Origin: Candidatus Micrarchaeota archaeon
Lineage (GTDB): Archaea > Micrarchaeota > Micrarchaeia > Anstonellales > Bilamarchaeaceae
NCBI GenBank assembly: GCA_964434735.1
Contig: CAYSWK010000002.1
Location: 634-64,633, forward strand
Direction: 5' to 3'
Length of the DNA stretch: 64,000 nt
The position numbers were made by a program, and so were the translations under genes. Positions 24,267-48,839 of the stretch are shown here, in pieces. Below the pieces are notes generated by a model, which was not told the origin of the DNA, did no database searches, and saw nothing but the letters and a program-made list of their open reading frames with translations. The first letter of the stretch is position 1. Every line of letters starts with the position of its first letter.

Positions 24267-24685
24267 CTGATCCGTGGAACGTTTTGAGAGTACCCCGGCA
24301 CAAGGGAATCATTTTCAGCATCGACAGCATCATAAGCCTACTCCTTTTCCTTATTGCGCTTGTCATCATCTCCGGTTCATTGGTTCCGAATACTCCTCGA
24401 ACTACGAGTATCAAGGATCTTGCATACGACATCCTCAGCGTACTGGATGCAAGCGATAGGTACGAACAATACATTGAAGGGGACTCAAGCGCAATTCGCG
24501 ACCTCCTCACCAATACCCCGTCAAACGTATGTATGGATATACAAATTACTGAATATTTAGGAAACACGAGCGTCGTAAGCAAGCCAAACTGCGGAGGATT
24601 TACGCGTGAACTCCAGTCTACGTACAGCTCATTCGCGTATGGCGGAAAATATTATACCGTGCAATTGTTAGGGTGGGAACGATGA
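24239..24685 (+). CDS. pilin-like protein
   Basis: RHKGIIFSIDSIISLLLFLIALVIISG (KG then hydrophobic helix); overlaps neighbours (operon). Confidence 0.4.
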   Translation: MGNHKGVEMTDPWNVLRVPRHKGIIFSIDSIISLLLFLIALVIISGSLVPNTPRTTSIKDLAYDILSVLDASDRYEQYIEGDSSAIRDLLTNTPSNVCMDIQITEYLGNTSVVSKPNCGGFTRELQSTYSSFAYGGKYYTVQLLGWER

Positions 24686-25476
24686 GCACCAAAAAAGGAT
24701 TTTTCTATTCAGTTATGATGATTGCGATCATCTCCATCCTTGCAGGGTTGTGGCTTGATTCCCAGCACGCAAGCAACCGGCTTGAACGCGCCTTTGAATC
24801 GCAGGAAGGCGCACTCTTTTTGGCATATACAAAAAATGAGCTGTTTCAGGACCTCGCAGAAGTTACGCAAGTACGCGTACATTCTGACGGCACCCGGATA
24901 AAAATAAACGGCTCGCTGCCAGCATACAACCCTTCGCAGGCACTTGAAGATTATAACACCTTTATCCAAAACTGGACTTCAAAAAGCCACATAAACCTGA
25001 CCCTTGACACGTCAGCACTGGAAGACGGAGATACGGACATAATGATATACAACACAACCGTGCGGGCAAACTACAGCGATACGCCTTCGAACATATCCCT
25101 TTCAAACCTGACAACCGACTACCTTGTCATAAACATAAGTGCGCCCTACGAACGGCTTGAGGTAGATGATTTTTCATTTGGCGCAGGCAGCACCAACCTT
25201 ACGTTTGTATATACTGATTCAAACGGAACGGTTGAAGAAAACGGAATGGTGAACCTTGCAAATTCAAACACGGCAGAAGTGACGTACGTGAACCACAAAT
25301 CAATAATTATACGCATCATACCTCAAAAAAGGCTTGAGATACTCAGCAATGTTTCAGATGGAACGTGGGAAATCGAATACAACAAAAGCCCCGATGATAT
25401 AGGCGTTATGGGATACCCTGTCGAACTAGAAATGTTCTATACCCAGGTAACCTATAATGGCGGAGTCTACAAATAA
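24673..25476 (+). CDS. pilin-like protein with N-glycosylation-sequon-rich domain
   Basis: MSTKKGFFYSVMMIAIISILAGLWL; body has many N-x-S/T sequons (NYSD, NISL, NLTT, NISA, NLTF, NGTV). Confidence 0.4.
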   Translation: MGTMSTKKGFFYSVMMIAIISILAGLWLDSQHASNRLERAFESQEGALFLAYTKNELFQDLAEVTQVRVHSDGTRIKINGSLPAYNPSQALEDYNTFIQNWTSKSHINLTLDTSALEDGDTDIMIYNTTVRANYSDTPSNISLSNLTTDYLVINISAPYERLEVDDFSFGAGSTNLTFVYTDSNGTVEENGMVNLANSNTAEVTYVNHKSIIIRIIPQKRLEILSNVSDGTWEIEYNKSPDDIGVMGYPVELEMFYTQVTYNGGVYK

Positions 25477-25521
25477 CCCGTAAGATTACGTTTTTAAGCA
25501 TCGCCTTCCACTATAAGATAC

Positions 25522-26085
25522 ATGAAACGGGAGGAACTCCTTGTGCTTGGGTTAGTTTGTCTTATCCTGGTACTCCTAAGCATAGTGTCATTTTTCACAA
25601 ATAATGTGGATGAAGGTAGCGCACGCCAATTTGTCCTTGAAGACCTCAAATCCCGTTTTCCGTATGCGGATGTTGAAATCATAGAGTCAAAATCTGCAGT
25701 AAATAACGAAGGCAAAGAATACTTCTCGATAAAAGCAAAAGTAACTACTGAGGCACAAAGCGCATGCCCGCTTCGAAGCCATTACTATTACAGCTATCCT
25801 GAGCAAAATTTTGTACCGGCACCCGCAGACCACATAACAACCCCCGAATGCAAAGTATGCAAGGAAACGCCCTGCATCATCGCATTCCCTGAAGAAGCGA
25901 CAATCGCATCACACACGTTGAGCGGAACGGAACAAGTAAAGGAGTTTGTAAACTCCCATCCCTACTCCAATCATTCGGTTACGAACAACGGCTCGGTTTT
26001 CATAGTTTCCTGGTTTGATACGGAACAAGGATATAATGTAACAATAAGCCGTTCAGGAAAAGTATTGTCCGTTTTACCAAGGTGA
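25522..26085 (+). CDS. membrane-anchored hypothetical protein
   Basis: N-terminal TM (LLVLGLVCLILVLLSIVSFF), Cys-containing extracellular domain. Confidence 0.35.
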   Translation: MKREELLVLGLVCLILVLLSIVSFFTNNVDEGSARQFVLEDLKSRFPYADVEIIESKSAVNNEGKEYFSIKAKVTTEAQSACPLRSHYYYSYPEQNFVPAPADHITTPECKVCKETPCIIAFPEEATIASHTLSGTEQVKEFVNSHPYSNHSVTNNGSVFIVSWFDTEQGYNVTISRSGKVLSVLPR

Positions 26086-26089
26086 ATGG

Positions 26090-26947
26090 TTGCTTGAGGA
26101 ACTTGCATCCTACTGCCCGCTGGATTCAATCACCGAAGGAATGGCAACGATATCAAATTCATTCCGTATAAACTCACTTAAAGTCTCACCGCTTGCGTTT
26201 GAAACGATAAGCGCCATCGAAAGAAAACAGGTTCCTTGGTACCCTCATGCATATACGTGCAGCAAAAAAATTGAACTTGGCAAAACATTTGAATTTTTTC
26301 TTGGCTATATTCATCCCCAAAGCCTTGGCTCAATGGTTCCTCCATTAGTACTACATCCTAAACCTGCAGATAAAGTGCTTGACCTCACGGCAAGCCCGGG
26401 AAGCAAAACCTCTCAGCTTGCCATGATGATGGAAAATAAAGGAATCCTCATTGCCAATGATGTACGCGAACGCGAGGCCGGGCTCATCGGAACGCTTACG
26501 CGCCTTGGAGTATTCAACGTAGTTGTTTCAACAAAAGATGCACGGACCTGGCCAATCAAGCATGAATTTGACCGGGTGCTTCTTGATGCCCCCTGTTCTG
26601 CGCTTGGTTCAACACTCAAATCATGGAAACGGTTTTCGCTTGAATACTCCCAAAAACTTTCAACCATCCAATCAACAATGCTCATACGCGCATTCGATGC
26701 GCTTAAGGACGGGGGGACGCTCGTGTATTCAACTTGTACCTTTTCCCCCTTTGAAAATGAAGTGGTGATTGCAAACCTGCTCAAAGCACGCGACCATGCG
26801 CGTATAGAAAAAATCCCTCTTGAAATACCGCATGAAAACGGATTGAAGGAATTCGGCGAAGGGCTTGAAAAAACATGGAGGATATACCCCCACCATCTTC
26901 AAAGCGAGGGATTCTTCGTAGCAAAAATAAGCAAGGTGCAGCCATGA
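26090..26947 (+). CDS. NOL1/NOP2/Sun-family RNA (cytosine-C5)-methyltransferase
   Basis: SAM motif VLDLTASPGSKTSQL, catalytic DAPCSALGS and TCT(F)SP motifs. Confidence 0.8.
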   Translation: MLEELASYCPLDSITEGMATISNSFRINSLKVSPLAFETISAIERKQVPWYPHAYTCSKKIELGKTFEFFLGYIHPQSLGSMVPPLVLHPKPADKVLDLTASPGSKTSQLAMMMENKGILIANDVREREAGLIGTLTRLGVFNVVVSTKDARTWPIKHEFDRVLLDAPCSALGSTLKSWKRFSLEYSQKLSTIQSTMLIRAFDALKDGGTLVYSTCTFSPFENEVVIANLLKARDHARIEKIPLEIPHENGLKEFGEGLEKTWRIYPHHLQSEGFFVAKISKVQP

Positions 26948-27393
26948 AAATAACAAAACCTGCAGAACTTGAAGAATATTTGCGCGTACGATTCAACTTA
27001 ACGCTTCCGACGTACCTTGAACTATCCTCAACAGAACAGCACGGCATCCGCGTACACACCAAGCACGTTCATGGCTCAAAGGCATGGGGCCTCAAAGGAA
27101 TCCGTGCCTATTCAAAAAAAGACGGCCTAAGCACCTGGCTTATCCAGGCAATAGGAATGCATGCGACAAAAAATATGGTTGCGGCGAATAAGGAAGAGGC
27201 GCTTCTTTTCTGCGAGGGAAAAGAATTCAAGAAAAAACTGAAAATGGAAGACGGCGACGTCATTGTTTCTTACAAGGGACATATTCTTGGCCTAGGGATC
27301 TTCAAAAAAGGAATAATTACGAGTAAAGTGCAGGGGAAACGTGCTCGTGCCATTTCAAACGACCTTCGGGCCTATCCAGGTAGGAATGTGTAA
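26944..27393 (+). CDS. PUA-domain protein
   Basis: start ATG at 26944 overlapping upstream stop; C-terminal GDVIVSYKGHILGLGIFKKG...KRARAISNDLRAY is PUA-like. Confidence 0.45.
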   Translation: MKITKPAELEEYLRVRFNLTLPTYLELSSTEQHGIRVHTKHVHGSKAWGLKGIRAYSKKDGLSTWLIQAIGMHATKNMVAANKEEALLFCEGKEFKKKLKMEDGDVIVSYKGHILGLGIFKKGIITSKVQGKRARAISNDLRAYPGRNV

Positions 27394-27404
27394 ACGATTA
27401 GCTA

Positions 27405-28379
27405 TTATGTTATCGAAACCATGCTTCCTACTACCAAAAGTGCAAACCAGAATGCCGCCAGCGCAAACGCAGCAACAAGCGGGAAATACTTCAACCCATA
27501 CAACGGCTTACCTGTTGAAATGACGCCGTTAAGTATGCTTGAAAGGAGGGCAGTTATGATAAGTGAAATGATTGCCGCAAACCTCATCTCTTCAACCGTA
27601 ACGGGCAATTTCCCAGCAAAAATAGGAACCGACTTGCTGATGGAACCGATGCTGCTTATACCTGATTGCTCCTGAATGGAAGAAAAAAGGTTTAAGAAAC
27701 TCACTGAAACCGCAAGCAAGAAAGGCATGACGATAATGACAATAAATGCAAGGAAAATAGTGTATGATTGAGTCTGCATAACCAGCTCCTGCTTGAGCTC
27801 GCGGATTCTTCGTATTTCCTCCGCGTTTGCGAGCAAAAGCTTTGCAAGCTGTCCGCCGCTTCGTGATGCTTTTGAGAACAAATCAATAGAGCGCTTGAAA
27901 ACTACGGAATCAAACCTACCTTCAAGCATGCGCAACACTTCCACGAGTGAGGTACGCGCACTGACCATAGCACCAACCGAATGAATCTCATAGTACAATC
28001 CCTTAAATTCCTCACGGTTGGCACGCATAAATGCATCATAGGGAGTCATACCTGCACGTAAATTCGATGCAGTAATAGTGAGGAATTCAGGAAGCACCTT
28101 TTCAACCTGTTCCGTACGGGAAACCTGCTTGAAGAAAAGAGAAACGTATTGAAGGAAGGTAAGGAATAAAAGTGCGGCAACAAACATTCCTGCTGCAATT
28201 AGGAGCGTTTTTGTTACAAGATATGCCCCAAGAGAGATAAGGAGGGAAAAGAAGGGAATGAAAAAAATCCGCTTGCCGATCCACTGGTCGGCATCCTCAT
28301 ATATACCCAAACGGACAAAACGGGCCGACGTGCTTGCAAGGAATTTTTTATTGATTCGGCCAAGGTTTCTAAACGCCAT
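27405..28379 (-). CDS. FlaJ/TadC-like membrane protein (T2SS-F domain)
   Basis: 324 aa, TM helices flanking cytoplasmic helical domain; in operon with FlaI-like ATPase. Confidence 0.5.
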   Translation of the reverse strand: MAFRNLGRINKKFLASTSARFVRLGIYEDADQWIGKRIFFIPFFSLLISLGAYLVTKTLLIAAGMFVAALLFLTFLQYVSLFFKQVSRTEQVEKVLPEFLTITASNLRAGMTPYDAFMRANREEFKGLYYEIHSVGAMVSARTSLVEVLRMLEGRFDSVVFKRSIDLFSKASRSGGQLAKLLLANAEEIRRIRELKQELVMQTQSYTIFLAFIVIIVMPFLLAVSVSFLNLFSSIQEQSGISSIGSISKSVPIFAGKLPVTVEEMRFAAIISLIITALLSSILNGVISTGKPLYGLKYFPLVAAFALAAFWFALLVVGSMVSIT

Positions 28380-28380
28380 A

Positions 28381-29358
28381 TTATCCCCCTATTACCTCAG
28401 GCCTGCTTGTTGAAACAAAGCCGATGATCGCAATTTGCATAAATACGCTGCCGCCAAGCAACAAATAGATAGTCGTTGCATCAATCCCAACTCCGCTAAA
28501 TGAAGAAAGCAAAATCAAAAACGTAATTCCTAATGAAGGTACGGCTGCCGCAATCATCATGTAAATGAGCATGATGAAATTAAGGCTTGCCGAATAAGCC
28601 TTGATGTCTGCAAGAAGCTTTTTTTCAAGGGCGTCTATGACGCTTACCAATGAAACATTTACCTTTGCACCACTTTCAAGCGAATTGACAACCTGCCACA
28701 GACTACGCTTAAGGAATTCATTCTTGCTTTCGATGGCAAGATGCTTAAGGCTTGCTTTTTCCGAGTATCCCGACTCAATTTTTCTTACCGCAGTGTTAAA
28801 GTCACGTGAAACATACCCGTAATCGCCAATGCTGATGTTGCGTATTGCCTCGAAAAGGGTAAGGCCGCTTTCAATCCCCATCGTGACCTCACGCAATGCA
28901 AAAAGAAGATCCTTGTTCTGCTTTGCAATAATTTGATTGGCAATAATCATAGGGTATACTAGGTGAAGTAAGAAAAAAAGAAAAATGAACCCTGCTGAAA
29001 AAAGAATGCTTCGTAAAACCAAAAATTGCAAAGGGTTAAGCTGCAATTCAAAAAATGACGTTTCTGCAACAGATACAAAACCCGCATTTTTGCTTACAAG
29101 CGAAAGCACAACTGGCTCCGAAGTAAGGGGAGTTATGACAAAAAGAACAAGAAAAATAAGAATGGCAAAAAAGAACCCGTAAAGGCAGGATGAAAGAAAC
29201 GAAGCAGCGGCATACTGCTTTGCAGTAGTATGAATTTCAAGGTACTCAAGCTGGAAATCAAGTTCGGGGAAAAACTTAAGAAGACGATTAAACGGAAGGC
29301 GCATCACCCAGGTTCCCTTAAGCCGGGCAGGGTCAACCAAAAGAAAGGGTATTTTCAT
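28381..29358 (-). CDS. FlaJ/TadB-like membrane protein (T2SS-F domain)
   Basis: second paralogous platform protein; start placed at MKIPFLL (ATG 29356-29358) directly after ATPase stop. Confidence 0.5.
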   Translation of the reverse strand: MKIPFLLVDPARLKGTWVMRLPFNRLLKFFPELDFQLEYLEIHTTAKQYAAASFLSSCLYGFFFAILIFLVLFVITPLTSEPVVLSLVSKNAGFVSVAETSFFELQLNPLQFLVLRSILFSAGFIFLFFLLHLVYPMIIANQIIAKQNKDLLFALREVTMGIESGLTLFEAIRNISIGDYGYVSRDFNTAVRKIESGYSEKASLKHLAIESKNEFLKRSLWQVVNSLESGAKVNVSLVSVIDALEKKLLADIKAYSASLNFIMLIYMMIAAAVPSLGITFLILLSSFSGVGIDATTIYLLLGGSVFMQIAIIGFVSTSRPEVIGG

Positions 29359-29359
29359 A

Positions 29360-31066
29360 TTATACCAGCTTCTTTGCGCTCTGGTTCTTGCGGGCGGCCT
29401 CGATAACCTCATCGGGGGAAAGATAGTACTTCTTTATGATTTCACCGACCTGGTTGATGTCCTCAATCTTATTTTTCACCATCCATTCAAGAATGCCCTT
29501 TTTCTCCTTCTGGTCATCATAAATTTCCTTCTCAGTCATACCTGTGTGAAGGTTTATGTTTTCAATATAACGATGAGGAGGTTTTACCATTTGGAACTCG
29601 TCCTGCCTTGCACGCCAGACAAACACACGATTTATTTCCGGGCCGTTTGCGCCAGGTATAACTTCAGAAATTTCAAGCGTCCTTCTTAAGTTTCTTCTTC
29701 GGTCACGGAACTGCACCATGACCAAGTGGATGTCTTCAACTTCAGCAGGAGGGATTTCTATTGGAGGCTCAGTGAGACGCTTAAGCATCTGGCTTCCCGT
29801 ATCGGCGTGCATGGTCGCGTAAACTGAATGCCCCGTGTGCATTGCCTCGAACAGGACCTCGGCTTCGCGTTTTCTTCGCACTTCGCCCATGATAATGCGG
29901 TCAGGGCGCATACGTAATGCATTAACTACCAAGTCAAGCATCGAAACCTCACCCAAACCTTCAGAATTTGCCGCACGAGTTGCCATAGGAACCCAGTTCC
30001 ATTGATAATCTGGAAGAAGCAGTTCACGCGTATCCTCAATGGTTACAATACGCTGCTGAGGAGGGATAAGCGCCAATACACCGTTAAGTGCCGACGTCTT
30101 GCCGCTTGCGGTGCCTCCCCCTACGAGGACGTTTGCTTCATAATGTATTGCCTGCCATAAAAGCGCCGCCATATCGGTTGACATGGTTTTTTGCAAACCG
30201 ATCATGTGAATAATCGTCCAGGGGTTTCGCGCAAAAAGACGCAACGTAATCGTATTGCCTGCGGTTGAAATGGGAAACAACGTTGCATTGACACGGTCAC
30301 CAGTTTGAAGGTGCGCATCTAAAATAGGATTAAGAGTATTGATCTGCTTTCCGACCCTTCGAGCGATCTGTGCGGAATAATTCTCGATTTCATCCTCGTT
30401 TTCCGCCTTGAGGCTTGTCTGCATCCACCCCAATTTACGGTGGTACACTGCAAGCGTGTTCTTGCTTGAATTGGCAACGATTTCTTCAAGCCAATTATCT
30501 GCAATAAGCAAGTCCAATTTTCCAAGCCCGTACATGTCACGGAAAAGCCATGACGCGCATGCGCTCAATGCGTCCCCTTGCGCAAGCGGTTTAAGTGCAT
30601 CAAGGATTGTTGCAAATTTTTCCTTTTTTGAATCCTGACCCTTTCGTGCACGTTCCTCGTTTAAAATAGCAATTTGCTTTTTGAGCGAATTAAGGTAAAG
30701 TCTCGTATAGTATGAGATGCTTGGCAACTCAACAAAATAACGCTTTGCGCCTTCTGCCTCATACAGGTGCGCCTTGGCAACAGGGACACCTTCGTCTTTT
30801 ACATCATACGTATCGATTGCCTTGGTCTTTGCGGGCAAGGCGGAATCGTCCTCAACAGGCGGCTTGATATTACGTATAAAGGGGCGCGAAAAAAAATTAA
30901 GCGGATACACAAGTTCAAGTGCGCCTTCTTTTTCAAGCACACGCGCAATTGATTCAACAAGTGAAAAAGGAGTCTTGGTTTGCTTTGCAATGGCGACAAG
31001 CGTGATGCGCTTTTGCCCTTTACAGGCGGTTATAACTTCATCAACCTTGGTTTTGTAGTCTGCCAT
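29360..31066 (-). CDS. type IV filament assembly ATPase (FlaI/TadA family), second copy
   Basis: Walker A VLVGGGTASGKTSALNGVLALIPP, Walker B RIIMGEVRR, His box VYATMHAD; long N-terminal extension. Confidence 0.8.
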   Translation of the reverse strand: MADYKTKVDEVITACKGQKRITLVAIAKQTKTPFSLVESIARVLEKEGALELVYPLNFFSRPFIRNIKPPVEDDSALPAKTKAIDTYDVKDEGVPVAKAHLYEAEGAKRYFVELPSISYYTRLYLNSLKKQIAILNEERARKGQDSKKEKFATILDALKPLAQGDALSACASWLFRDMYGLGKLDLLIADNWLEEIVANSSKNTLAVYHRKLGWMQTSLKAENEDEIENYSAQIARRVGKQINTLNPILDAHLQTGDRVNATLFPISTAGNTITLRLFARNPWTIIHMIGLQKTMSTDMAALLWQAIHYEANVLVGGGTASGKTSALNGVLALIPPQQRIVTIEDTRELLLPDYQWNWVPMATRAANSEGLGEVSMLDLVVNALRMRPDRIIMGEVRRKREAEVLFEAMHTGHSVYATMHADTGSQMLKRLTEPPIEIPPAEVEDIHLVMVQFRDRRRNLRRTLEISEVIPGANGPEINRVFVWRARQDEFQMVKPPHRYIENINLHTGMTEKEIYDDQKEKKGILEWMVKNKIEDINQVGEIIKKYYLSPDEVIEAARKNQSAKKLV

Positions 31067-31727
31067 CGAATGTGCTTGCTGTTGTGATGTTTATATTTGT
31101 TACGCATTCTTGAAAATTAAAAAAATACAAGTCTGATTGCACTAGGTGTACAATAGCCAGCAATTTCAAAAAGAAATTGCAAGTTCAAGTTAACTTTGTT
31201 AACAGTCCTTTCATTTTTTATAAGCAAAAATGCAAGAGTAATTGAACTTCGTTCAAAACCCTTCCATTTTTGTGAGCAAAAATGCAAGAGGCAGGATATT
31301 CACTGTTTCCCGCACCCTGCAGTCTGCATCCAGAAATTACTGGAAACAGGTAACTGGCTGCTGGAAACTGATTTGAACCTGCGTAGTCACTAAGACACCA
31401 AACATCTCCGGCAATTTGACAACGTCAAAAAGCCTCCTGAATCTGGCACGTTTGACCGGGCTCCGCCACTCTTGCGTTTACTTATGTTTTCCGAATACAA
31501 CGTAGCGGCCTATTCCAAGAAAGTACTTAGAGTTGGCCTTGCTCGCACTTTCGTGCGAGAGCTTTTGCAAGAGCTTGGGTTCCGAAGGAACCTGGCGGGC
31601 ATTGACGCGCACGTCAACCAAACCGCCACTCTTGCGTGGTATTATGTTCTTCTTATGCAACATCCGTTGATTGAACATGCTACTCTTGCCTCGTTACTCT
31701 TATAAATATGACAAGTGAGAGAAACGC
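31067..31727. repeat. repeat-dense divergent intergenic region (7-mer GCAAGAG/CTCTTGC x6, tandem 30-mers, duplicated 14-mer ccgccactcttgcg)
   Basis: gcaagag at 31232, 31284, 31567; ctcttgc at 31469, 31629, 31684; tandem repeat tc(c/a)ttttt.t.agcaaaaatgcaagag at 31205-31237 and 31259-31290; ccgccactcttgcg at 31463-31476 and 31623-31636. Confidence 0.6.
31436..31476 (-). pseudogene. tRNA-like 5' segment (acceptor + D-arm + anticodon stem/loop of a tRNA-Leu-like sequence, anticodon CAG) without a contiguous 3' half
   Basis: minus strand GCAAGAG TG GCG GAGCCCGGTCAAA CGT G CCAGA TTCAGGA mirrors the 5' half of the tRNA-Leu at 48714-48839; a T-arm-like GCAGGTTCAAATC lies 54 nt further downstream on the same (minus) strand (plus coords 31370-31382) and a CTCTTGCA acceptor-3'-like element at 31283-31290. 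Confidence 0.35.
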
Positions 31728-32468
31728 ATGGCATCCCGTGATACAACTCCCGCATATGTACCAAAAACCATCGAAAGAATCAAAAGCGGAATTCCCGGAT
31801 TTGACCAATTGATCCAGGGGGGATTTGTAAATCATTCAACAACGCTTGTACGCGGTGGAACGGGAACGGGGAAAACCCTTTTTTGCCTCCAGTATTTATA
31901 CAAGGGAATACGTGAACATAATGAACCGGGCGTATTCATCTCATTTGCAGAAACTGAGGAAGAAATCATACAGCACGGCAACAGCTTTGGCTGGGATCTT
32001 GAAGAATTAATAAAAAAGAAACAATTTGCGATCATACAATATGCGCCGCACGAAATCGCCCACGTCATGGAAGAGGGGGGCGGAAGCGTCCGTGACACCA
32101 TCGAGTCCCTTGGCGCAAAACGCCTTGTCATCGATTCCATAACTGCATACTCACTTTTATTTGAAAATGAATACAAGGCAGATGAATCAATATTGGACCT
32201 CTTCCAGCTGCTCAAAAAATGGGGATGTACTTCATTAGTAACTTCAGAATATCCTGTATATGTGGATCAAAGCACCCCGGAAAGGCTTGGGTTTCTTACC
32301 GATGGAATACTTAACCTCTATTATTTTAGGGTAAACAACAAAAGAATACGTGGGCTTGAAGTGCTCAAAATGCGGGATACGCACCAGGAGAATACCATCC
32401 GTTCGATGGAAGTAAGTAAGACGGGAATTATAATTGGCAAACCGCTTTCATTAAGAGGTCAAGCATGA
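31728..32468 (+). CDS. FlaH/ArlH-like KaiC/RecA-superfamily ATPase
   Basis: GIPGFDQLIQGGFVNHSTTLVRGGTGTGKTLFCLQYLYKG Walker A in KaiC-like fold, ~246 aa, as in archaellum FlaH. Confidence 0.6.
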   Translation: MASRDTTPAYVPKTIERIKSGIPGFDQLIQGGFVNHSTTLVRGGTGTGKTLFCLQYLYKGIREHNEPGVFISFAETEEEIIQHGNSFGWDLEELIKKKQFAIIQYAPHEIAHVMEEGGGSVRDTIESLGAKRLVIDSITAYSLLFENEYKADESILDLFQLLKKWGCTSLVTSEYPVYVDQSTPERLGFLTDGILNLYYFRVNNKRIRGLEVLKMRDTHQENTIRSMEVSKTGIIIGKPLSLRGQA

Positions 32469-34489
32469 AAAAAGGACAAACCGCGGTTGAATTTCTTTTG
32501 ATATTTGCAGCCGTGCTTCTATTGGTGTTTATAGCAACCTCGGTAAACCGCGAACAAATTTCTACCATCAATACTCAAAAAATAAACACACAAGCGCAAA
32601 GCGCAGTTGAGGAAATTGCTGCGGCTTCCCAGCAAGTCTATGCACAAGGGGAAGGCGCAAAAAAAAGAATATTCATCATTGTCCCTGAAGGATATGATCC
32701 TGAAAGTTCTTCCCTTTCGAATCGGACGATTAAGATGAGGGTCCGTGAAACCGATTATACGTACGCAACGGATTTTGATATTTACGGATCAGTCCCACGG
32801 TACTACGGCGGCCAATGGCTCTGGGTTATCTCTGAAGGCACGTCAGTACGAATTAGCGATGCCCTCTTCAGGGTCGTTCCCGTTTCCATAAACAATATCA
32901 TGTCACAAAATGCAACCGACCAAGAAACGTTTACGGTTGAAAGCCTCTCAAACACGCCAATCAACGTCACGCTTGACCCTGTATGGAGCAATTCTGTCAG
33001 CCTGGATCTAAGCACTAATTCCTTTTCGCTCAATGCGTCAGAAACGCAAGTAGTTACTGTTACATTTGAATCCCCCGTGAACGCAATCGGCTTCCAATCA
33101 GGAAGCATTTTTGCACAAGCAACAAACGGAACAACAAATGACAGTCTTTCCCTTCCCATAACCATCGAAGTAGTCGGAACATACCAGGATAATTCGCCCG
33201 CACTTACGGTTGACCCTTCCATCTGGGAGGAGAGCCTCAATTTAAATGAAAGCAAAACGGCAACATTTACGGTGTGCACAAACACCGTTACAACTGTTCC
33301 TTCAGTCCAATTCATACCCTCTTCGGGAAACCCCGGGTCGTGGATAAGCGGCACAAGCGCACTTGGACCTTTGATTGAATCAGAATGCCAAGACAAGGAA
33401 CTTACCGTTACGGGCGCATCAAACGCAAGTTCAGGAATTTACATAGGATACATTAATGTGTCAGGAAGCGAAAATGCCTCGGACATCATTGTTACTATTA
33501 TGCAATTGACAGGGGCAAACGATTCACTAGGCCCCATTGTCACAGGGATCAGTTTAAGCGACTCAGATATCCTTGCAGGTGAAAACTTCAGCATCACCGC
33601 AACGGGCGATGATTCAACAACGGGCAATTCAAGCATTGCAAGCTGCGAAATACAAATGAACGGCGGTAGCTGGCAAGCTATGGAAGCACAGGACGGAAAT
33701 TATAATGAAGTGAGTGAAGGAGTCGAACTTAGTTTCATCATGAACACTGCTTCAAGCAACACTGCAGGAATCAGGTGCACGGATACAGCTGGAAATACCG
33801 GCAGCATATATGAGTATGAATTCAGTATAATGAAAAATATCCTCTTCATACGAAAAACGAGCGCAACTCAAACCTCCGAAGAACAATGGATGACGTTCCT
33901 TAATACGTACGTTTCCGGCCTGGGGTATTCCTGGGATTATGACGATTATGAAGAAGCGGACCTTGATGGAGATCTTGAAACAATCGAACTTTACAAAGTA
34001 GTTATTATGTCAGAATGGCAGCACCCGTCTGCAGTTGAAAATGAACTTGAAGACTATATGCAAGCGGGCGGAAGAGTTATCCATTTTGGGGGCGCACTGC
34101 AGCATGGAGTTGCAGATCTTGGGTTTGCATCAGGAAACTATAACCCTACTACTGAACGAAGAATATACGTCCATGAGGATTTGGCACACTACGTAACAAG
34201 CGGATTTTCATACGGCAGTATCCAGGTCCTTTCAAGCAATGACCAAATGTACCGCGGAGCAAACGGCGATTTCATAAGCGGAAGAGCCTCAGGGCAAGGG
34301 TACTACTTTATTTCACTCTCAAGCGGACAAACCGGATACCAGCATGAAACAATAGGAAGCGAGGCATTACGCGGGTCTGGAGGTTATTGGTGCTGGGGAG
34401 TTACGCGTCCGGACAAATTGAATTCAAACGGGCGAACGTTCGTAACCCGCATTATAGACTGGAGCATCCAGCAATCACAAATAGAATAA
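32465..34489 (+). CDS. giant pilin-like surface protein (674 aa) with class III signal peptide
   Basis: MKKGQTAVEFLLIFAAVLLLVFIATSV (KG-Q, E at +5) overlapping FlaH-like stop; Thr/Ser/Asn-rich body with many N-x-S/T sequons. Confidence 0.55.
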   Translation: MKKGQTAVEFLLIFAAVLLLVFIATSVNREQISTINTQKINTQAQSAVEEIAAASQQVYAQGEGAKKRIFIIVPEGYDPESSSLSNRTIKMRVRETDYTYATDFDIYGSVPRYYGGQWLWVISEGTSVRISDALFRVVPVSINNIMSQNATDQETFTVESLSNTPINVTLDPVWSNSVSLDLSTNSFSLNASETQVVTVTFESPVNAIGFQSGSIFAQATNGTTNDSLSLPITIEVVGTYQDNSPALTVDPSIWEESLNLNESKTATFTVCTNTVTTVPSVQFIPSSGNPGSWISGTSALGPLIESECQDKELTVTGASNASSGIYIGYINVSGSENASDIIVTIMQLTGANDSLGPIVTGISLSDSDILAGENFSITATGDDSTTGNSSIASCEIQMNGGSWQAMEAQDGNYNEVSEGVELSFIMNTASSNTAGIRCTDTAGNTGSIYEYEFSIMKNILFIRKTSATQTSEEQWMTFLNTYVSGLGYSWDYDDYEEADLDGDLETIELYKVVIMSEWQHPSAVENELEDYMQAGGRVIHFGGALQHGVADLGFASGNYNPTTERRIYVHEDLAHYVTSGFSYGSIQVLSSNDQMYRGANGDFISGRASGQGYYFISLSSGQTGYQHETIGSEALRGSGGYWCWGVTRPDKLNSNGRTFVTRIIDWSIQQSQIE

Positions 34490-34494
34490 AAAAA

Positions 34495-36243
34495 TTAGCG
34501 GGCAATTGCCTTTTTCTGACAATCGAATGGAAGACGTTTACACGTCGTAGTACCTCGAATGCAGGCACTTTTGCCTGATATGATAAGGGTCTTGCTCGCA
34601 CCGAATCTTCCAAGAACAGCATTAAGGTTTGCATCCGTGCACGTTTTCCCTGCAAGGGATTCTTTGGGCTTTGGTTTTTCCTTAACAGTTTTTATGGCTT
34701 TAGCGAGTGTAGGCACGGAAATAGAAACGGGCGGCGGTGCCACGGTTCCTGCATCTGGTTTTGCAGGAAGCACTTGTGCATCAACTTGTCGAGGCATTTC
34801 CGTAGGAACCTCCTTAGCAACATGCGTGCCTGAATCAACCGTAACAACAACGGGAGTTAAAACTGGGATAACCACTTCGTTCTTTGAAGAACGTAAAGAA
34901 CTAATTCCTAACCCTATTACCGTTCCAAGTAAAACAACTCCTGCAACAAGGCCTACGTTTACAAGCGTATTTTGAGGTTGAGGCTTTGCATGGAAAATTA
35001 AGGGTTCGCCTAAAACAATATTCGCTAAATTGCCTGCATTTACCAAAGCAATACGTAATTGAGCTAATTCACTTGCAGTTTTTTTACCATTCAGACCTAA
35101 AAAGCCGTAAGTAAGTTCGCTAAGTGCCTTATTGCCTTTTCCTACAAAATCGATAGCGATAGTATTATCGTCATTATTTTGCGAAATTGCAACGTATGAT
35201 ACATTTCGTGCTTCAAGAACTCCTGAACGATTAAGCACGTCATAAAGTTTTTGTTCGCACCTCTTTTTTTGCCGTTGTCGCCTCATACCTTTTGCAATTG
35301 CTCTCTGATCGATAGTAAGTCCAAGCTCTGCGTCAAGCGCTGCATCAAGTGAGACGTGCACACCAATCGAATCGCGATCTAAAATTTTACTTTGTTTTTT
35401 ATTTAATTCTTTAATCTCCGCTTCTTTTTCTTTCGATGAAAGAACAGCGTTTGATGAGATTTCCGCTTTCTTTTGATCAAAATATGCGTTAACTTTTTGA
35501 CGAAGTTCTTCCTCATTCATGGAAAATAATTCCCCAAGACGATTCTGATATGCGTACTCTTGTTGAAAAAATGCGCGCATTTGATAGATAGAAACTTTTT
35601 TTTGCGAAGAAACAGGTATTGTTTCCAAAATTTCATAAGCAGCATCGAGAACCGCTTCAGCAAATACCTCATCAACTTTATTTGAGACTAATTTAAGAAC
35701 GGTTATTGCTGCCCGTTTTTTTTCACTCAAAGATGATGAATCAGACGTCATGATTTCATATAGTGCATCGACATACTCCTTGTTTGTAAGTACTGGAGTA
35801 AAATCAACTGATACAATGGGAACATCGGGATCTTCAATACCGTCTCCGTCCTCAGTATCGAAACCGGCAGGCAAATCAGAGGTACGTAGAACTAATGCAG
35901 GCTGCCCGAAAGTAAGCGTCTTTGCATTTTCATCTGCAGGTCCGAAAAGCGGATCTACAGTTCCACCAATAAGCTCGACCGCGTCATCATCAACTTCGTG
36001 TTCAGGATCTGGAATGGTAGGTTGCGCATCAAGTGATAATTCAGGTACATCCTTACCTGGAACTGGCAACGACTCACTGAGAACTGACTGCTGGGAACCG
36101 GAAACCGGCTGCTGTGCACTGGGTGCTGACTGCTCGGTACCTGATGCCGGCTGCCCGGTGCTGGCTGCACCCGGAGTAACCTTAGGCTTAGGGGGCACTT
36201 CCCCGAAAGGATCATCTTCAAGGTCTGATTGAGCTATTGCCAT
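34495..36243 (-). CDS. ORFan membrane protein, paralog A (582 aa): acidic N-terminal domain, single TM, C-terminal 4-Cys module
   Basis: N-term MAIAQSDLEDDPFGEVPPKPKV and C-term KTCTDANLNAVLGRFGASKTLIISGKSACIRGTTTCKRLPFDCQKKAIAR shared with 36322-39258; TM VGLVAGVVLLGTVIGLGISSL. Confidence 0.6.
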   Translation of the reverse strand: MAIAQSDLEDDPFGEVPPKPKVTPGAASTGQPASGTEQSAPSAQQPVSGSQQSVLSESLPVPGKDVPELSLDAQPTIPDPEHEVDDDAVELIGGTVDPLFGPADENAKTLTFGQPALVLRTSDLPAGFDTEDGDGIEDPDVPIVSVDFTPVLTNKEYVDALYEIMTSDSSSLSEKKRAAITVLKLVSNKVDEVFAEAVLDAAYEILETIPVSSQKKVSIYQMRAFFQQEYAYQNRLGELFSMNEEELRQKVNAYFDQKKAEISSNAVLSSKEKEAEIKELNKKQSKILDRDSIGVHVSLDAALDAELGLTIDQRAIAKGMRRQRQKKRCEQKLYDVLNRSGVLEARNVSYVAISQNNDDNTIAIDFVGKGNKALSELTYGFLGLNGKKTASELAQLRIALVNAGNLANIVLGEPLIFHAKPQPQNTLVNVGLVAGVVLLGTVIGLGISSLRSSKNEVVIPVLTPVVVTVDSGTHVAKEVPTEMPRQVDAQVLPAKPDAGTVAPPPVSISVPTLAKAIKTVKEKPKPKESLAGKTCTDANLNAVLGRFGASKTLIISGKSACIRGTTTCKRLPFDCQKKAIAR

Positions 36244-36290
36244 CGGATTACCTGTTATATATTATGGTATTTCGTATATTTAAACATATG
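36244..36290 (-). promoter_or_regulatory. TATA-box promoter of paralog A (duplicated block)
   Basis: coding-strand tttaaatatacgaaataccataatatataacaggtaatccgATG; near-identical 45-nt block at 39259-39305. Confidence 0.55.
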
Positions 36291-36321
36291 CATAACTCGT
36301 AATTTAGGAAAAAAATAAAAA

Positions 36322-39258
36322 TTAGCGGGCAATTACCTGTCTTGGGCAACTAAACGGGAGACGTTTACACGTCGTAGTACCTCGAATACATGCGTTTTTG
36401 TCTAATACCATGAGGGTCTTGCCCGCACCGAATCCTCCAAGGGCGCGATTAAGATTTGCATCAGTACACGTTTTCCCTGCAAGGGGTTCTTCGGGCTTTG
36501 GTTTTTCCACAACCGATTTTACGACCTTTTTAGGAGCAGGTTTAGATGAATCTTCATCACATTTTGATGAATCAAGCCTAACTCGTTTTGCAAGTTCTGC
36601 CACCTCATAATTGTCAGCCATGTTTCCCTTAGGACACGTTTCATCAATGAGTTTTTTGATAACGCGTTTTGCGCCTTCAGTATCTTTTGCTTCAAGGTAC
36701 TTTTCAGCTGCAGTGAACATATTTCCCGCGTTTTCTGCTTTTTTTGCAGCCGTTAAAACAGGATCTTCTTTTATTCCTGCATCCGCAGAACCGGAAACTG
36801 GAGACTGAGAATCCGCAACGGGTCGCGAGGAGTCTATTGCTACTCCCGCATCACGTACGGATGCATCTTGCGCTTGACGCACTTGTTGAACTGCTGCAAC
36901 TGCTTGCTCTTGTTGTGAAGATTCATTGTTTCCAAAATACTTGACCACTCCAATCACAAGACTTGCTGCAAGCGCAAGGCCAGAAAGCACGGCAAGCGGG
37001 CCAGTCAATGATATTTTTGGTTTTTGGCGAGGGCGCGACCCCATGCGCTCTGCAAGCTCCCTGAATTCCAAAGCGTCAATTTCAACATCAGAACTTTCGC
37101 CCATCCGCTGCGCAAGCCTTCTTTGACTGTCATCGGTAACAACCTCAAGTACCCGTTTATTCGCAGCATCGACAACTGCGTATCGTTCACGATCGGTATC
37201 AACTCGTACGACCCGTACTCGCCGGGTTCCTTCCGATAGGGAACTTGCCGCATCTCGAAGCGGCCTGACAGGAACTTCTTCATCGCCAATTTGTGCAACG
37301 TGCGCGTCCTTTTCTTCAAACAACCGTTTAACCTGGGCACGCATTTCAGGATATTCTTCACCAAATAAATCCTCAAAATATCGATTCATTATTCTAAGAA
37401 CTGCAAGCGGGAAGGTTTCAGGATTGAACTTTGGTAAAAGTGCAGCACGAATGAATGCTTTTTGAACAGAAATTGGAAGATCGCCCCCTTCAACAAATGA
37501 ACTGAATAAAGGGTCTCGTTCGCTCTTCCTCCATGAAGCAAGTTGAGTGAATACGGTTTCAGGAACCAAAACGGCTGCTTCTGTAGGTTGCCCTGAACCA
37601 ACAAGATAGGTATAAACTTCACCTTCAATGGCCGCATTAAGAACATCATCACCAAAGGATGAGGCTGATAACTTTTCAAGAACCGCCCTGCCGAACCTCA
37701 CGCGAATGTCGTTTGCCTCACCTTTCAAACCTTCAGAAACAAGGTTCGCGATTTTAACGCCCATGTAATGAAGAAGCTGCGTTTGCTCATCTGATGAAAG
37801 CTGTGTGGGAGCCGTATCTGATGAAAGCGTTCTAGGAGCAAGATAGATGCTCCTAAAAGACTCAATCAAATGATCTACGATAGTTTCAAGTTCTTCTGGA
37901 GTTCTTTGTACATGCGAAATTCGTTGTGAAACACGTAAATCAACCTCACTTTTTGCAAGTCTAAGGTAAGAAGAGTCTCGATTTACTAAAAGCCGTGAAG
38001 CATCAACGGCTTCTGGTCTTAAATCAAGAATAGCAGAAATTGTTGCACCCAATGTGGTTGGATCGGCAACCCTACGAAGTGCAATCAGCTGCTCGCTGGA
38101 AAGGGCTTCAAGAAGATTATCTTTTAAAGGATGCGACTGCAATCCGTCTGCAACCCCCATCTGCTCTTCACCGGTCAGATGTAAAAGTACATCAACAAGA
38201 AATGCGGCATTGCGCGTAGTCTGGAATTGCTCAAGTGCAAGAATAAGTTCAGGAGAAACAGTAAGGCCAGAAGGAAGTTCAAGACCCAATGAAACGGCCA
38301 GCCTGATGGGAGTGCGTGCCATCAAAGGCGACGTCGTTTGAGGCGGCTCAGGGATAGGACGTTTTACGGTTGTTGCATCATCACGTGGGGGTGCCCGTGC
38401 AGCAGGAACAGTCTCGGCGGTTGGACTGACTGCCCGAGGGTTAGTAGGTTCGCCATCAAGTTCAACATCATCCCATTCAAGGGTTTGCGTCCCCTCGTGT
38501 GATGGAAATGCAGCGATATCATCTTCATCTGCAGGTTCTATCCCATCACCGTCAGCATCAACTTCCAGAATAGGAGTTACACCTGTAACTTCCGACCTGC
38601 TGGGTTCACGGCCTGCAAGTGCATCCGCCAGTTCATCTTGAGGCAAAGATACAATGACATTAGGAGCTTCATCGCTTGCGCCCTCAGGAATGCTATGAGT
38701 GGAAGTCGTTGCGCGTGGATCATTGCCATATTCGATAGTATCTGCTCTGGAAGCTGCGGGAGCTTCGACTGCAGCGGGTTCTTCTTCATCATTAAAATCA
38801 AATGGATTTCTTGCAAGTCCGACTGATGATTCTGATACTACTAATATAGGTTGTCCTCGAACAAGCGTCTTTGCATTTTGATCAGCAGGTCCGGAAGATG
38901 GAGTATGCTCACCACCAACAACATGTTCATCTGCTTCGTGTTCAAGACCTTCATCTGTTTCTCCTAAAACCTGACTGGGGGTTACGGGTAAAGTGCTTTG
39001 AGAAGGAAGTGGGGCAGATGCCGGTGTTTTAACTGAAGAACTTTCAGAATCATCTATGTCAGTACGTTGCGCATCAAGTAATGGTTCAGGTGCATCCTTA
39101 CCAGGAACTGACAACGGGGAATCGGAAACCGGCTGCACTGTGTCCGATGCTGAAACGGGTGCTTGAGCTACAGGCTTAGCTGCTGCGCGGGTAACTTTAG
39201 GCTTAGGGGGTACTTCCCCGAAAAGATCATCTTCAAGTTCTGAGTTTTTTATTGCCAT
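36322..39258 (-). CDS. ORFan membrane protein, paralog B (978 aa)
   Basis: N-term MAIKNSELEDDLFGEVPPKPKV; TM LAVLSGLALAASLVIGVVKYF; C-term KTCTDANLNRALGGFGAGKTLMVLDKNACIRGTTTCKRLPFSCPRQVIAR; 3' coding DNA ~85% identical to paralog A. Confidence 0.6.
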   Translation of the reverse strand: MAIKNSELEDDLFGEVPPKPKVTRAAAKPVAQAPVSASDTVQPVSDSPLSVPGKDAPEPLLDAQRTDIDDSESSSVKTPASAPLPSQSTLPVTPSQVLGETDEGLEHEADEHVVGGEHTPSSGPADQNAKTLVRGQPILVVSESSVGLARNPFDFNDEEEPAAVEAPAASRADTIEYGNDPRATTSTHSIPEGASDEAPNVIVSLPQDELADALAGREPSRSEVTGVTPILEVDADGDGIEPADEDDIAAFPSHEGTQTLEWDDVELDGEPTNPRAVSPTAETVPAARAPPRDDATTVKRPIPEPPQTTSPLMARTPIRLAVSLGLELPSGLTVSPELILALEQFQTTRNAAFLVDVLLHLTGEEQMGVADGLQSHPLKDNLLEALSSEQLIALRRVADPTTLGATISAILDLRPEAVDASRLLVNRDSSYLRLAKSEVDLRVSQRISHVQRTPEELETIVDHLIESFRSIYLAPRTLSSDTAPTQLSSDEQTQLLHYMGVKIANLVSEGLKGEANDIRVRFGRAVLEKLSASSFGDDVLNAAIEGEVYTYLVGSGQPTEAAVLVPETVFTQLASWRKSERDPLFSSFVEGGDLPISVQKAFIRAALLPKFNPETFPLAVLRIMNRYFEDLFGEEYPEMRAQVKRLFEEKDAHVAQIGDEEVPVRPLRDAASSLSEGTRRVRVVRVDTDRERYAVVDAANKRVLEVVTDDSQRRLAQRMGESSDVEIDALEFRELAERMGSRPRQKPKISLTGPLAVLSGLALAASLVIGVVKYFGNNESSQQEQAVAAVQQVRQAQDASVRDAGVAIDSSRPVADSQSPVSGSADAGIKEDPVLTAAKKAENAGNMFTAAEKYLEAKDTEGAKRVIKKLIDETCPKGNMADNYEVAELAKRVRLDSSKCDEDSSKPAPKKVVKSVVEKPKPEEPLAGKTCTDANLNRALGGFGAGKTLMVLDKNACIRGTTTCKRLPFSCPRQVIAR

Positions 39259-39305
39259 CGGATTACCTGTTATATATTATGGTATTTCGTATATTTAAAT
39301 ACATG
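39259..39305 (-). promoter_or_regulatory. TATA-box promoter of paralog B (duplicate of 36244-36290)
   Basis: cggattacctgttatatattatggtatttcgtatatttaaa block identical to that upstream of paralog A. Confidence 0.55.
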
Positions 39306-39306
39306 T

Positions 39307-42759: not shown

Positions 42760-42768
42760 CTATTGAAA

Positions 42769-44139: not shown

Positions 44140-44300
44140 TAATTATTAGTTATGGATATTTGTGTATAAACATCTATTTAAATGTTTGTACAAGAGACAA
44201 GAAGTGGTTTTGCTAGAACTAGGCCCTCCCTCTCTCTCATAAAAATGAATGTATAAAAGCGTTTAAAAGTGTGTGTCTCTGGGCTAAAAATGAGTAGGGG

Positions 44301-48690: not shown

Positions 48691-48713
48691 TTTTCATTTT
48701 TATAAATAAAAAT

Positions 48714-48839
48714 TGCAAGGAGGCGGATTTGAACCGCCGAACACACTAAGTGACAGGATATCTTCGACTTTTTGATTAAACTTTTTTTCAAAAAGTTTAC
48801 TTAAGTCCTGCGCATTTAACCGGGCTTTGCTATCCTTGC
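48714..48839 (-). tRNA. tRNA-Leu(UAA) with ~41-nt intron between positions 37/38
   Basis: minus strand GCAAGGA TA GCA AAGCCCGGTTAAA TGC G CAGGA CTTAAG[intron TAAACTTTTTGAAAAAAAGTTTAATCAAAAAGTCGAAGAT]A TCCTG + 15-nt variable arm + GGCGG TTCAAAT CCGCC + TCCTTGC A; D-loop and long variable arm typical of class-II Leu tRNA. Confidence 0.65.

Follow-up and report, generated by a model that had tools for sequence, protein, structure and literature searches.

The stretch of DNA analysed here (the window, 64,000 nucleotides of a Candidatus Micrarchaeota contig) contains two adjacent genes, designated A and B, that begin and end alike but have different middles. The locus raises the question of how such a pair arose and whether it belongs to a family of variable surface or effector proteins in which a constant leader and a constant Cys domain carry variable large domains, as was proposed in a preliminary description made from the sequence alone.

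The gene pair and its support in independent assemblies

34495-36243, minus strand: gene A, 582 aa (ORF call)
36322-39258, minus strand: gene B, 978 aa (ORF call)

Protein A comprises an acidic, probably disordered N-terminal region (residues 1 to ~150), a helical body (~150-420), and one transmembrane (TM) helix (426-448), beyond which a stalk rich in Pro, Val, and Thr leads to a C-terminal module with four cysteines. B has the same architecture, but its disordered N-terminal region is longer (1 to ~310) and its helical body is a different, larger one (~315-740). The TM helix (749-772) and an ectodomain of 206 residues follow, the latter with a helical-hairpin segment (830-900) as well as the 4-Cys module. 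Single-sequence AF2 models were unusable (mean pLDDT 40 for A and 42 for B), and their secondary structure is of low confidence. The GC content by codon position in A follows the order GC1>GC2>GC3 (0.59/0.40/0.30), and the strong periodicity of this type shows that A and B are real coding sequences.

NCBI and two Logan assemblies also contain the exact A protein, and the B protein of an independent Logan copy has a single residue changed (H112P). The tandem order B-A is supported by an independent Logan contig, L007, that spans 39279..36255; a second contig, L001, begins at 36264, and both end within the repeated promoter region. Contigs from short reads that end exactly at a repeat could reflect a mis-joined or collapsed repeat with spurious ORFs, that is, an assembly artefact or a non-coding repeat. 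However, this is refuted by L007, which includes the unique B-A spacer and links B to A's promoter copy. The copies also differ at ~18% of sites with an excess at third positions and a dN/dS of about 0.35 in the shared modules, and the ORFs of 582 and 978 codons have strong codon-position GC periodicity. The tandem order is not an artefact of assembly, and an artefactual origin of the pair can practically be dismissed. The A/B arrangement is identical in two metagenomic samples.

Conserved ends and unrelated centres

36235..36284, minus strand: 50-nt run, copy 1, with a TATA-like box TTTAAATATA at 36275-36284
39250..39299, minus strand: 50-nt run, copy 2, upstream of gene B, with the TATA-like box at 39290-39299
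35824..36243, minus strand: N-terminal module of A, residues 1-140
38524..39258, minus strand: N-terminal module of B, residues 1-245, with the islands of A in identical order and insertions between them
34498..34707, minus strand: C-terminal module of A, ~70 residues, Cys 535, 561, 568, and 575
36325..36534, minus strand: C-terminal module of B, Cys 931, 957, 964, and 971
34485..34494, minus strand: oligo-T tract TTTTTTTATT directly after the A stop codon (repeat D1 starts at 34485)
36309..36321, minus strand: oligo-T tract TTTTTATTTTTTT directly after the B stop codon

A and B are co-oriented tandem paralogs, as had been claimed. Pairwise alignment of the two halves of the locus (blastn) recovers the shared ends, 34490-34694 with 36317-36521 (82% identity over 205 nt) and 36017-36290 with 39062-39305 (74% over 276 nt), and no HSP in the centres. 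The upstream blocks that had been described as near-identical and as containing a TATA box are in fact identical at 41 of 41 positions directly 5' of the two start codons (36244-36284 and 39259-39299), beginning with TTTAAATATA. Together with the first 9 nt of coding sequence they form a perfect 50-nt run that extends from the TATA box through codon 3, in the order TATA-like box, spacer, the SD-like AGGTAATC, and the ATG with 6 further nucleotides (those of gene A in copy 1). Copy 2 sits in the 48-nt gap 3' of the stop codon of the next gene, C. The 27-nt core of the run occurs at just these two sites in the window, where shuffled sequences are expected to give 0 matches, and the chance of a perfect 50-nt run at 18% divergence is ~5e-5. 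Archaeal TATA boxes are A/T-rich elements that precede the transcription start by about 25-30 nt. In A and B, TTTAAATATA lies at -41..-32 from the ATG, and a similar box is found at -43 from the start of gene D; from their sequence, the boxes are putative promoter elements. A possible operator-like inverted repeat in this region was rejected, since only the TATA palindrome was found. On the 3' side, the ~100 nt downstream that had been reported as ~85% identical are not similar over that length: similarity stops ~10 nt past the stop codon in the oligo-T tract, which is the sole shared 3' flank and a putative archaeal terminator in both genes.

The conservation claimed for the first ~25 codons (MAI..S.LEDD.FGEVPPKPKVT) is borne out and reaches beyond them. 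Residues 1-122 of A and 1-144 of B are 42% identical with gaps (BLASTP E 1e-20), and the conserved islands are MAIxxSxLEDDxFGEVPPKPKVT, VPGKDxPExxLDAQ, EHExD, GPADxNAKTLxxGQPxLV, and DGDGIE, the last at 132-137 in A and 236-241 in B. Readings of DGDGIE as a PIP-box, EF-hand, or TSP3-like motif were rejected for lack of Pfam support, and a possible 21-nt tandem repeat in the leader of A was rejected as too degenerate for TRF.

The C-terminal module, of sequence KEKPKPKE-LAGKTCTDANLN...ACIRGTTTCKRLPFxC, is basic (pI about 10 in A), and its four cysteines have the identical spacing C-x25-C-x6-C-x6-C in A and B. The last 57 residues are 72% identical (BLASTP E 2e-24). At the DNA level, identity per 30-nt window is 67-93% over the last 210 nt and falls to ~30% beyond. 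A conserved 4-Cys module at the C terminus thus stands as described, with a DNA identity of 82% rather than 85%. A Zn-ribbon typically has two knuckles of the CxxC (or CPxC) type with a loop between them. The spacing in A and B includes neither CxxC nor CPxC knuckles, so the proposal of a Zn-ribbon is unsupported, and the module has no Pfam or PDB match. A CS-alpha/beta reading was also rejected, as the spacing does not fit. Disulfides would be the more natural reading for a module that is predicted to face the cell exterior.

34900..34968, minus strand: TM segment of A, residues 426-448, its sole hydrophobic segment and a helix in the AF2 model
36943..37014, minus strand: TM segment of B, residues 749-772, its sole hydrophobic segment

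The single hydrophobic segment in each protein agrees with the earlier claim of one TM helix; in A, Kyte-Doolittle 19-mers above 1.6 occur at residues 426-448 alone. Hydropathy identifies no N-terminal hydrophobic stretch or signal peptide in A or B. The TM segment of B is preceded by RPRQKPK, a +5 charge cluster that by the positive-inside rule places the N terminus in the cytoplasm, and the flanks in A are charge-neutral. The cytoplasmic leader that had been suggested is thus likely from the absence of a signal peptide and, for B, from the positive-inside rule. Hydropathy and charge together suggest an N-in/C-out topology, with cytoplasmic variable centres and an external, constant Cys module. 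Tail-anchoring and PGF-CTERM sorting were rejected because the TM segments are 130-230 residues from the C terminus.

The claim of unrelated middles was upheld. The central bodies score at a Smith-Waterman z of about 1 against shuffles, blastn with word size 7 gives zero HSPs between them, which also led to the rejection of frame-shifted homology, and ungapped identity is about 25-30%.

Age and origin of the duplication

The duplication had been described as recent. By the Nei-Gojobori method, however, dS is 0.39 (dN 0.15) in the C-module and 0.45 (dN 0.15) in the initial 27 codons of the N-module, values that are based on only 46 + 19 synonymous sites but are not near zero. With the dN/dS given above, the shared modules are under purifying selection; as there are just two sequences, this conservation is not generalisable. 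Unconstrained DNA at a dS of 0.4 is expected to retain ~68% identity (Jukes-Cantor). Because DNA of that age would still be ~68% identical and the centres are unalignable, the centres have a history different from that of the ends, and the mosaic points to an origin by recombination rather than by plain divergence.

In the account that we prefer, the whole cassette was duplicated in tandem at a time that is not recent, with a dS of ~0.4 that hardly differs between the two ends. One copy would then have had its central 300-450 codons replaced by non-homologous DNA, which is the most economical explanation of the mosaic. Each gene would be a full, separate expression cassette with its own TATA-box promoter, short leader, ORF, and oligo-T tract. 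The perfect 50-nt run may reflect strong constraint on regulation, or else a short tract of gene conversion at a later time, and in both cases A and B would be expected to be under one transcriptional control.

Alternatively, A and B could be ancient duplicates in concerted evolution, with bodies that diverged past recognition and ends that were re-homogenised by separate gene-conversion events. The perfect 50-nt run beside coding sequence that is ~19% diverged does resemble a recent short conversion tract, and both bodies are mainly helical with TM segments at similar positions. However, at least two independent conversions of coincident age (dS 0.39 and 0.45) and a third for the promoter would be required, the run matches the interval from the TATA box to the start codon exactly, as functional constraint predicts, and the bodies have no residual similarity even at the protein level. 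Since a source was found for neither centre, replacement cannot be separated from ancient divergence with conversion, and we regard the latter as possible but unlikely.

Family size, neighbourhood, and comparison with known systems

A further question is whether the pair is part of a larger family. A phmmer-type search of A against 5.8e9 proteins matched A and B alone, as did a full HMMER search of B against 1.84e9 cluster representatives (of 15e9 proteins). Back-translated motifs of the N- and C-modules had zero matches in DNA scans of GTDB genomes, JGI metagenomes, and IMG/VR, tblastn against INPHARED and PLSDB had none, and no silent cassettes or module fragments were found elsewhere in the window. 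A further member, on whose existence the preliminary description had made its family reading depend, was found nowhere in these protein sets and DNA scans. Neither protein has a match in Pfam, NCBIfam, PHROGs, or PADLOC, with sub-regions searched at E<=10, and sequence searches of the PDB gave nothing significant. Domain searches also returned sub-threshold helical noise (Lipase_chap and DUF1542). A and B, both single-pass membrane proteins of a Micrarchaeota-like DPANN archaeon, make up the whole of their lineage-specific (orphan) family.

39307-42759, minus strand: gene C, 1150 aa, upstream of B and co-oriented
42769-44139, minus strand: gene D, 456 aa, upstream of C and co-oriented

C and D are 9 nt apart, lack a TM segment, and have zero matches in every family library tried; C matched only itself in one protein-database search. 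As a block, D-C-B-A spans 9.6 kb of uncharacterised genes whose GC3 is low. On the other side, next to A, are genes for a FlaI-like ATPase, two T2SSF proteins, a KaiC-like ATPase whose best matches in Candidatus Micrarchaeota (55-62% identity) support the taxon given here, and a 674-residue protein with a class III signal. The orthologous pilus operon of relatives holds four small pilin-like genes at the position of A-D, so the proximity of A and B to the pilus locus is not a conserved feature. The A/B architecture is absent from the orthologous KaiC/pilus operons of three related contigs, which led us to abandon guilt by association as an argument that would link A and B to the pilus system. 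No domain, structure, or neighbour retained in relatives hints at what the pair does.

The block could be a horizontally acquired or mobile-element-derived island, with A and B as element-encoded membrane proteins. Protein-database searches gave no homologue of A, B, or C and none of the four genes has a family-library match, GC3 in the block, at 0.30-0.34, is below the window mean of 0.40, and the block occupies the site of the pilin-like genes of relatives. Yet an integrase, att-like repeats, and a flanking tRNA were looked for and not found, there is no match in IMG/VR, INPHARED, PLSDB, PHROGs, or PADLOC, and GC3 is equally low in other uncharacterised ORFs scattered in the window. Acquisition as an island is improbable and would in any case be compatible with the main explanation.

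Variable surface-antigen families have more than two copies, expressed or silent, that share constant ends, a variable segment that is exposed, and a switching device such as a recombinase, an invertible promoter, or a slippage tract. A and B could be such a cassette-type surface or effector family, in which alternative large domains are recombined into a constant scaffold and display or delivery is varied, given the mosaic with abrupt module borders, the identical promoters, and direct repeats able to support recombination; Nanoarchaeota (DPANN) also have hypothetical cell-surface proteins with elevated densities of non-synonymous SNPs (PMC6142677). This proposal of the preliminary description is not supported. 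There are two copies in all public data, silent cassettes are absent from the window, neither a recombinase domain in the neighbouring genes nor an invertible element nearby was found, the promoter is flanked by no inverted repeats other than the TATA palindrome, tandem repeats are absent, and both metagenomic samples have the same arrangement. Moreover, the part that varies is predicted to lie inside and the Cys knob, which is constant, outside. This is the opposite of the arrangement required of a variable surface antigen, and we consider a cassette-type family quite improbable.

Among known systems, the vsp/vlp lipoprotein clusters of Mycoplasma consist of tandem paralogs in which the 5' non-coding region and the first ~25-30 codons are near-identical and the remainder differs. 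They have many members; their conserved N terminus serves as a lipoprotein signal peptide, their variable part is displayed at the surface, and they switch by site-specific recombination or promoter slippage. A and B are similarly in tandem, with a near-identical 5' region and first codons and an otherwise different protein; unlike the vsp/vlp genes they are two in number, lack a signal peptide and a recombinase, are also conserved at the C terminus, and have the variable part on the predicted cytoplasmic side. In polymorphic toxins, a conserved N-terminal trafficking region precedes a variable C-terminal toxin domain, and an immunity gene is adjacent; in A and B, by contrast, it is the C terminus that is conserved, and Pfam and PADLOC identified no toxin or immunity domain. 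The probable N-in/C-out single pass, with a small extracellular and a large cytoplasmic part, resembles that of bitopic receptor or anti-sigma-like proteins, but neither sequences nor profiles connect A and B with any such family, and no signalling domain was detected. To our knowledge, sigma factors are absent from Archaea.

The class III signal peptide (PF04021) has a short charged N terminus followed by a hydrophobic helix, and its profile matches the neighbouring 674-residue protein but neither A nor B. With archaeal type IV pilus and Tad-like loci and their accessory proteins (Makarova, Koonin & Albers 2016, cited in PMC6142677), A and B share the physical neighbourhood alone; unlike genes of such loci they have no class III signal peptide, and the operon of relatives has no A/B-like gene. 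As the adjacency is not conserved, membership of A and B in the pilus system is unsupported. Fast-diversifying hypothetical surface proteins of DPANN symbionts are reported to have an elevated density of non-synonymous SNPs (Jarett et al. 2018, PMC6142677). Like these, A and B are lineage-restricted hypothetical envelope proteins of an ultra-small archaeon with type IV pili, but the evidence there is SNP density and here mosaic paralogs, and there is no homology. A role of A and B in contact with a host is speculation.

Taken as a whole, the best explanation is an orphan pair that arose by cassette duplication and centre replacement and that encodes N-in/C-out adaptors, to which we assign a probability of about 0.55. 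In this model, the acidic, probably disordered leader with its five conserved short motifs would provide docking sites for a common cytoplasmic partner, and would be followed inside the cell by a helical body that differs between A and B. Outside, the stalk would carry the basic 4-Cys knob, which is constant, is most likely held by two disulfides, and would bind a common external ligand. A and B would then be co-regulated, envelope-spanning adaptors with common interaction ends and different cytoplasmic domains; the disulfides, the adaptor role, and any host contact are inferred, as are the topology and the promoter and terminator functions, whereas the anatomy, the duplication, the mosaicism, the orphan status, and the purifying selection on the shared modules are demonstrated. 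A bolder and very doubtful version is that of a lineage-specific scaffold, in which constant promoter, docking leader, and extracellular Cys knob are retained as cytoplasmic domains are swapped by recombination, giving a DPANN symbiont a small set of co-regulated trans-envelope adaptors. If so, one external contact (host surface or pilus) would be coupled to alternative intracellular functions, and the C-terminal 70 residues would represent a new disulfide-stabilised binding fold.

The A/B pair reveals no new mechanism. What it offers is a clear case of mosaic tandem paralogs in which ends and centre differ in history and the core promoter is perfectly conserved, and it cautions that readings of a two-copy locus as a cassette family need to be checked against family size. 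A large share of the genes of Micrarchaeota is unannotated. If the working model is correct, the pair is a natural domain-swap experiment, with equal regulation, docking motifs, and knob and different cytoplasmic bodies, and could help to find envelope or host-contact machinery in these archaea.

Genes A and B, their shared ends and their centers

Genes A and B are neighboring genes with common ends and differing middles, and they are preceded by two co-oriented genes, C and D.

Genes of the A-D region
34495-36243, minus strand, gene A, ORF of 582 aa
36322-39258, minus strand, gene B, ORF of 978 aa
39307-42759, minus strand, gene C, ORF of 1150 aa
42769-44139, minus strand, gene D, ORF of 456 aa

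The strong GC periodicity by codon position (GC1 0.59-0.66, GC3 0.30-0.34) identifies all four as real coding sequences. Their GC3 is below the window mean of 0.40, and other uncharacterized ORFs in the window are equally low. Window-wide there are two GC3 classes, annotatable genes at ~0.42-0.48 and many ORFs without a Pfam match at ~0.30, including A-D. Low-GC3 examples are 7010-7513, 14877-16418, 19550-20689, 49130-50332 and 34495-44139, with the Pfam status applying to all but 7010-7513; differences in expression level, age or origin may underlie the split.

The A/B arrangement is not an artefact, and the locus recurs in Logan assemblies made independently from two sequencing runs. Contig L007 corresponds to 39279..36255 with one mismatch, starting in the B promoter, covering B and the unique spacer between B and A, and ending in the A copy of the promoter, and contig L001 corresponds to 36264..24495; Logan contig ends fall inside a 41-nt identical repeat, as expected of a de Bruijn assembler. 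The sole difference between the NCBI and Logan sequences in B is H112P (codon 112, 38923-38925, in L007), in the disordered leader.

Blocks of DNA similarity between the A and B regions (blastn, word size 7)
34490-34694 vs 36317-36521, 82% over 205 nt
36017-36290 vs 39062-39305, 74% over 276 nt, gapped
35891-35947 vs 38840-38896, 79%

These blocks, together with the promoter and the protein termini, bear out the preliminary description of tandem paralogs with a common promoter and common ends. The 41 nt directly 5' of the two ATGs (TTTAAATATACGAAATACCATAATATATAACAGGTAATCCG) are 100% identical, and the identity continues over 9 nt of coding sequence to give a perfect 50-nt run. The 27-nt promoter core is absent elsewhere in the window, even at 3 mismatches (0 expected in shuffles). 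At 44140-44200 (minus strand), a TTTAAATAGA box similar to that of A and B lies at -43 from the TTG start of gene D and is followed by AAATATCCATAA, which resembles AAATACCATAA of the A/B promoter and is possibly a chance match in AT-rich DNA.

At the protein level, the C-terminal 57 aa show 72% identity (E 2e-24), and the N-terminal 122 aa of A and 144 aa of B are 42% identical in a gapped alignment (E 1e-20) that consists of colinear islands (MAIxxSxLEDDxFGEVPPKPKVT, VPGKDxPExxLDAQ, EHExD, GPADxNAKTLxxGQPxLV and DGDGIE), with insertions in B. Each protein has four Cys spaced as C-x25-C-x6-C-x6-C, and in each there is a single hydrophobic segment. A degenerate 21-nt (7-aa, QPxSGxx-like) triple repeat at 36081-36171 (minus strand; A aa ~25-55), with 61-76% identity and a single counterpart in B, suggests that the leader grew via small tandem duplications; TRF makes no call on it.

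The edge of the C-module, the shared ~70-aa C-terminal four-Cys region, is abrupt, with 67-93% identity per 30-nt window across the last 210 nt and ~30% beyond. The common 3' flank is confined to ~10 nt after the stop codon (T7ATT and T5AT7) and not the ~100 nt first described. The bodies are indeed dissimilar, with a Smith-Waterman z of ~1 against shuffles, and blastn at word size 7 yields no HSP between them.

Divergence and origin of the pair

Over the ungapped codons shared by A and B (Nei-Gojobori), the C-module (63 codons) has dS 0.39 and dN 0.15, and the N-module, the shared N-terminal region (27 codons), has dS 0.45 and dN 0.15. From these values, both modules are under protein-level purifying selection (dN/dS ~0.35), and the two ends are equally old, which fits one whole-cassette duplication; at such dS the duplication is not recent, contrary to what had been proposed. 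Completely unconstrained DNA of this age would still be ~68% identical (Jukes-Cantor), but the centers are at random level; the ends and centers thus differ in their history, which requires recombination. Our preferred reading is that the center of one copy would have been replaced after a whole-cassette tandem duplication, at the cost of one extra event. Another possibility is that the duplication is far older and that the ends underwent gene conversion in separate events. The perfect run of 50 nt, with a chance of ~5e-5 at 18% divergence, spans exactly the TATA box to the start codon, a coincidence that, in two sequences, would fit either regulatory constraint or a short tract of later conversion.

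Predicted anatomy of the proteins

Both proteins lack a signal peptide and an N-terminal hydrophobic stretch. The TM helix is at aa 426-448 in A and aa 749-772 in B, with RPRQKPK just before that of B. An N-in/C-out topology is predicted because there is no signal peptide, a single TM and RPRQKPK ahead of the TM of B. The inside would then comprise the leader with five conserved short motifs, followed by helical bodies that differ between A and B, and the outside would comprise a stalk together with the constant four-Cys module, which is basic (pI ~10). The leader is acidic (pI ~4.1-4.4) and Pro/Ser/Thr-rich, with no secondary structure predicted in low-confidence AF2 models. The stalk of A is Pro/Val/Thr-rich; that of B consists of a Gln/Ala helix and a helical-hairpin segment (aa 830-900), the latter predicted with confidence and carrying two extra Cys. 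Two disulfides are more plausible in the C-module than a Zn site, since the Cys spacing is without CxxC knuckles and the module is predicted to be extracytoplasmic, and the suggested Zn-ribbon is not upheld. Membership of A and B among pilins, polymorphic toxins or Zn-ribbons fails in each case. The two could be envelope-spanning adaptors under common regulation that share their external and internal interaction ends and differ in their cytoplasmic domains, a function that reaches beyond the anatomy and is proposed with low confidence.

Neighborhood and family size

Directly beside A, and convergent with it, lies the gene of a 674-aa class-III-signal protein; next in order come those of a KaiC-like ATPase, a FlaI-like ATPase and two T2SSF proteins, the whole forming an archaeal type-IV-pilus-like locus. 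Three related contigs carry an orthologous operon (KaiC, a ~670-750-aa protein, four small pilin-like genes, ATPase and two T2SSF; 33% identity, E 4e-111, for the large protein), and the A/B architecture is absent among its neighbors there, so that adjacency to the pilus locus is not conserved and carries little functional information. Relative to other Micrarchaeota the operon at 27405-34489 is rearranged: contigs L003, L005 and L006 have all these genes, including the large class-III-signal protein, on one strand, whereas in the window the ATPase and T2SSF genes run divergently from KaiC, and that position lacks the four small genes. The contig carries two type-IV-pilus-like systems, as indicated by a T2SSF gene and another T2SSE ATPase, which shares 33% identity with the first, at 11365-14237.

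Two ORF-poor intergenic regions, 31067-31727 and 48690-48865, have common direct repeats, and a palindromic hairpin lies at 31206-31290.

Direct repeats
31463-31501, 31623-31661 and 48827-48865, direct repeat 1
31207-31238, 31259-31290 and 48690-48721, direct repeat 2

The second region overlaps a 126-nt intron-containing tRNA gene (48714-48839, minus strand), which matched the Rfam tRNA model (45 bits, E 2.5e-8) only in a permissive small-region run; no tRNA was reported by ARAGORN or by whole-window Rfam at the gathering threshold. Because of this overlap, more atypical tRNA genes, or genes of other RNAs, may lie in the 660 nt that separate the FlaI-like ATPase gene from the KaiC-like gene.

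The best matches of the KaiC-like neighbor have 55-62% identity and are in Candidatus Micrarchaeota MAGs, which points to a rather isolated DPANN lineage as the source. A search with A among 5.8e9 proteins matched A and B only, as did a full HMMER search with B among 1.84e9 cluster representatives of ~15e9 proteins; C matched only itself in a protein-database search. DNA scans for the shared motifs in GTDB genomes, JGI metagenomes and IMG/VR were negative, as was tblastn against phage and plasmid collections, and no relative was found in Pfam, NCBIfam, PHROG, PADLOC or PDB. No integrase, att site, viral or defence match was found around A-D.

In mycoplasma variable lipoprotein clusters the 5' region and leader are nearly identical and the rest differs, and A and B recall this arrangement. 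Variable-antigen families are defined by a large number of copies, a variable part that is exposed and a device for switching; these features were looked for in A and B and were not found. With no additional family members in the protein and DNA searches, there is no evidence for the cassette or variable surface or effector family first envisaged, and the family has two members only. A and B are a real, well-delimited mosaic pair of tandem paralogs that constitutes an orphan membrane-protein family. Phenomena of this kind are already known, the novelty being confined to the sequences, and the pair is a neat case in which ends and center have different histories and the core promoter is perfectly conserved.
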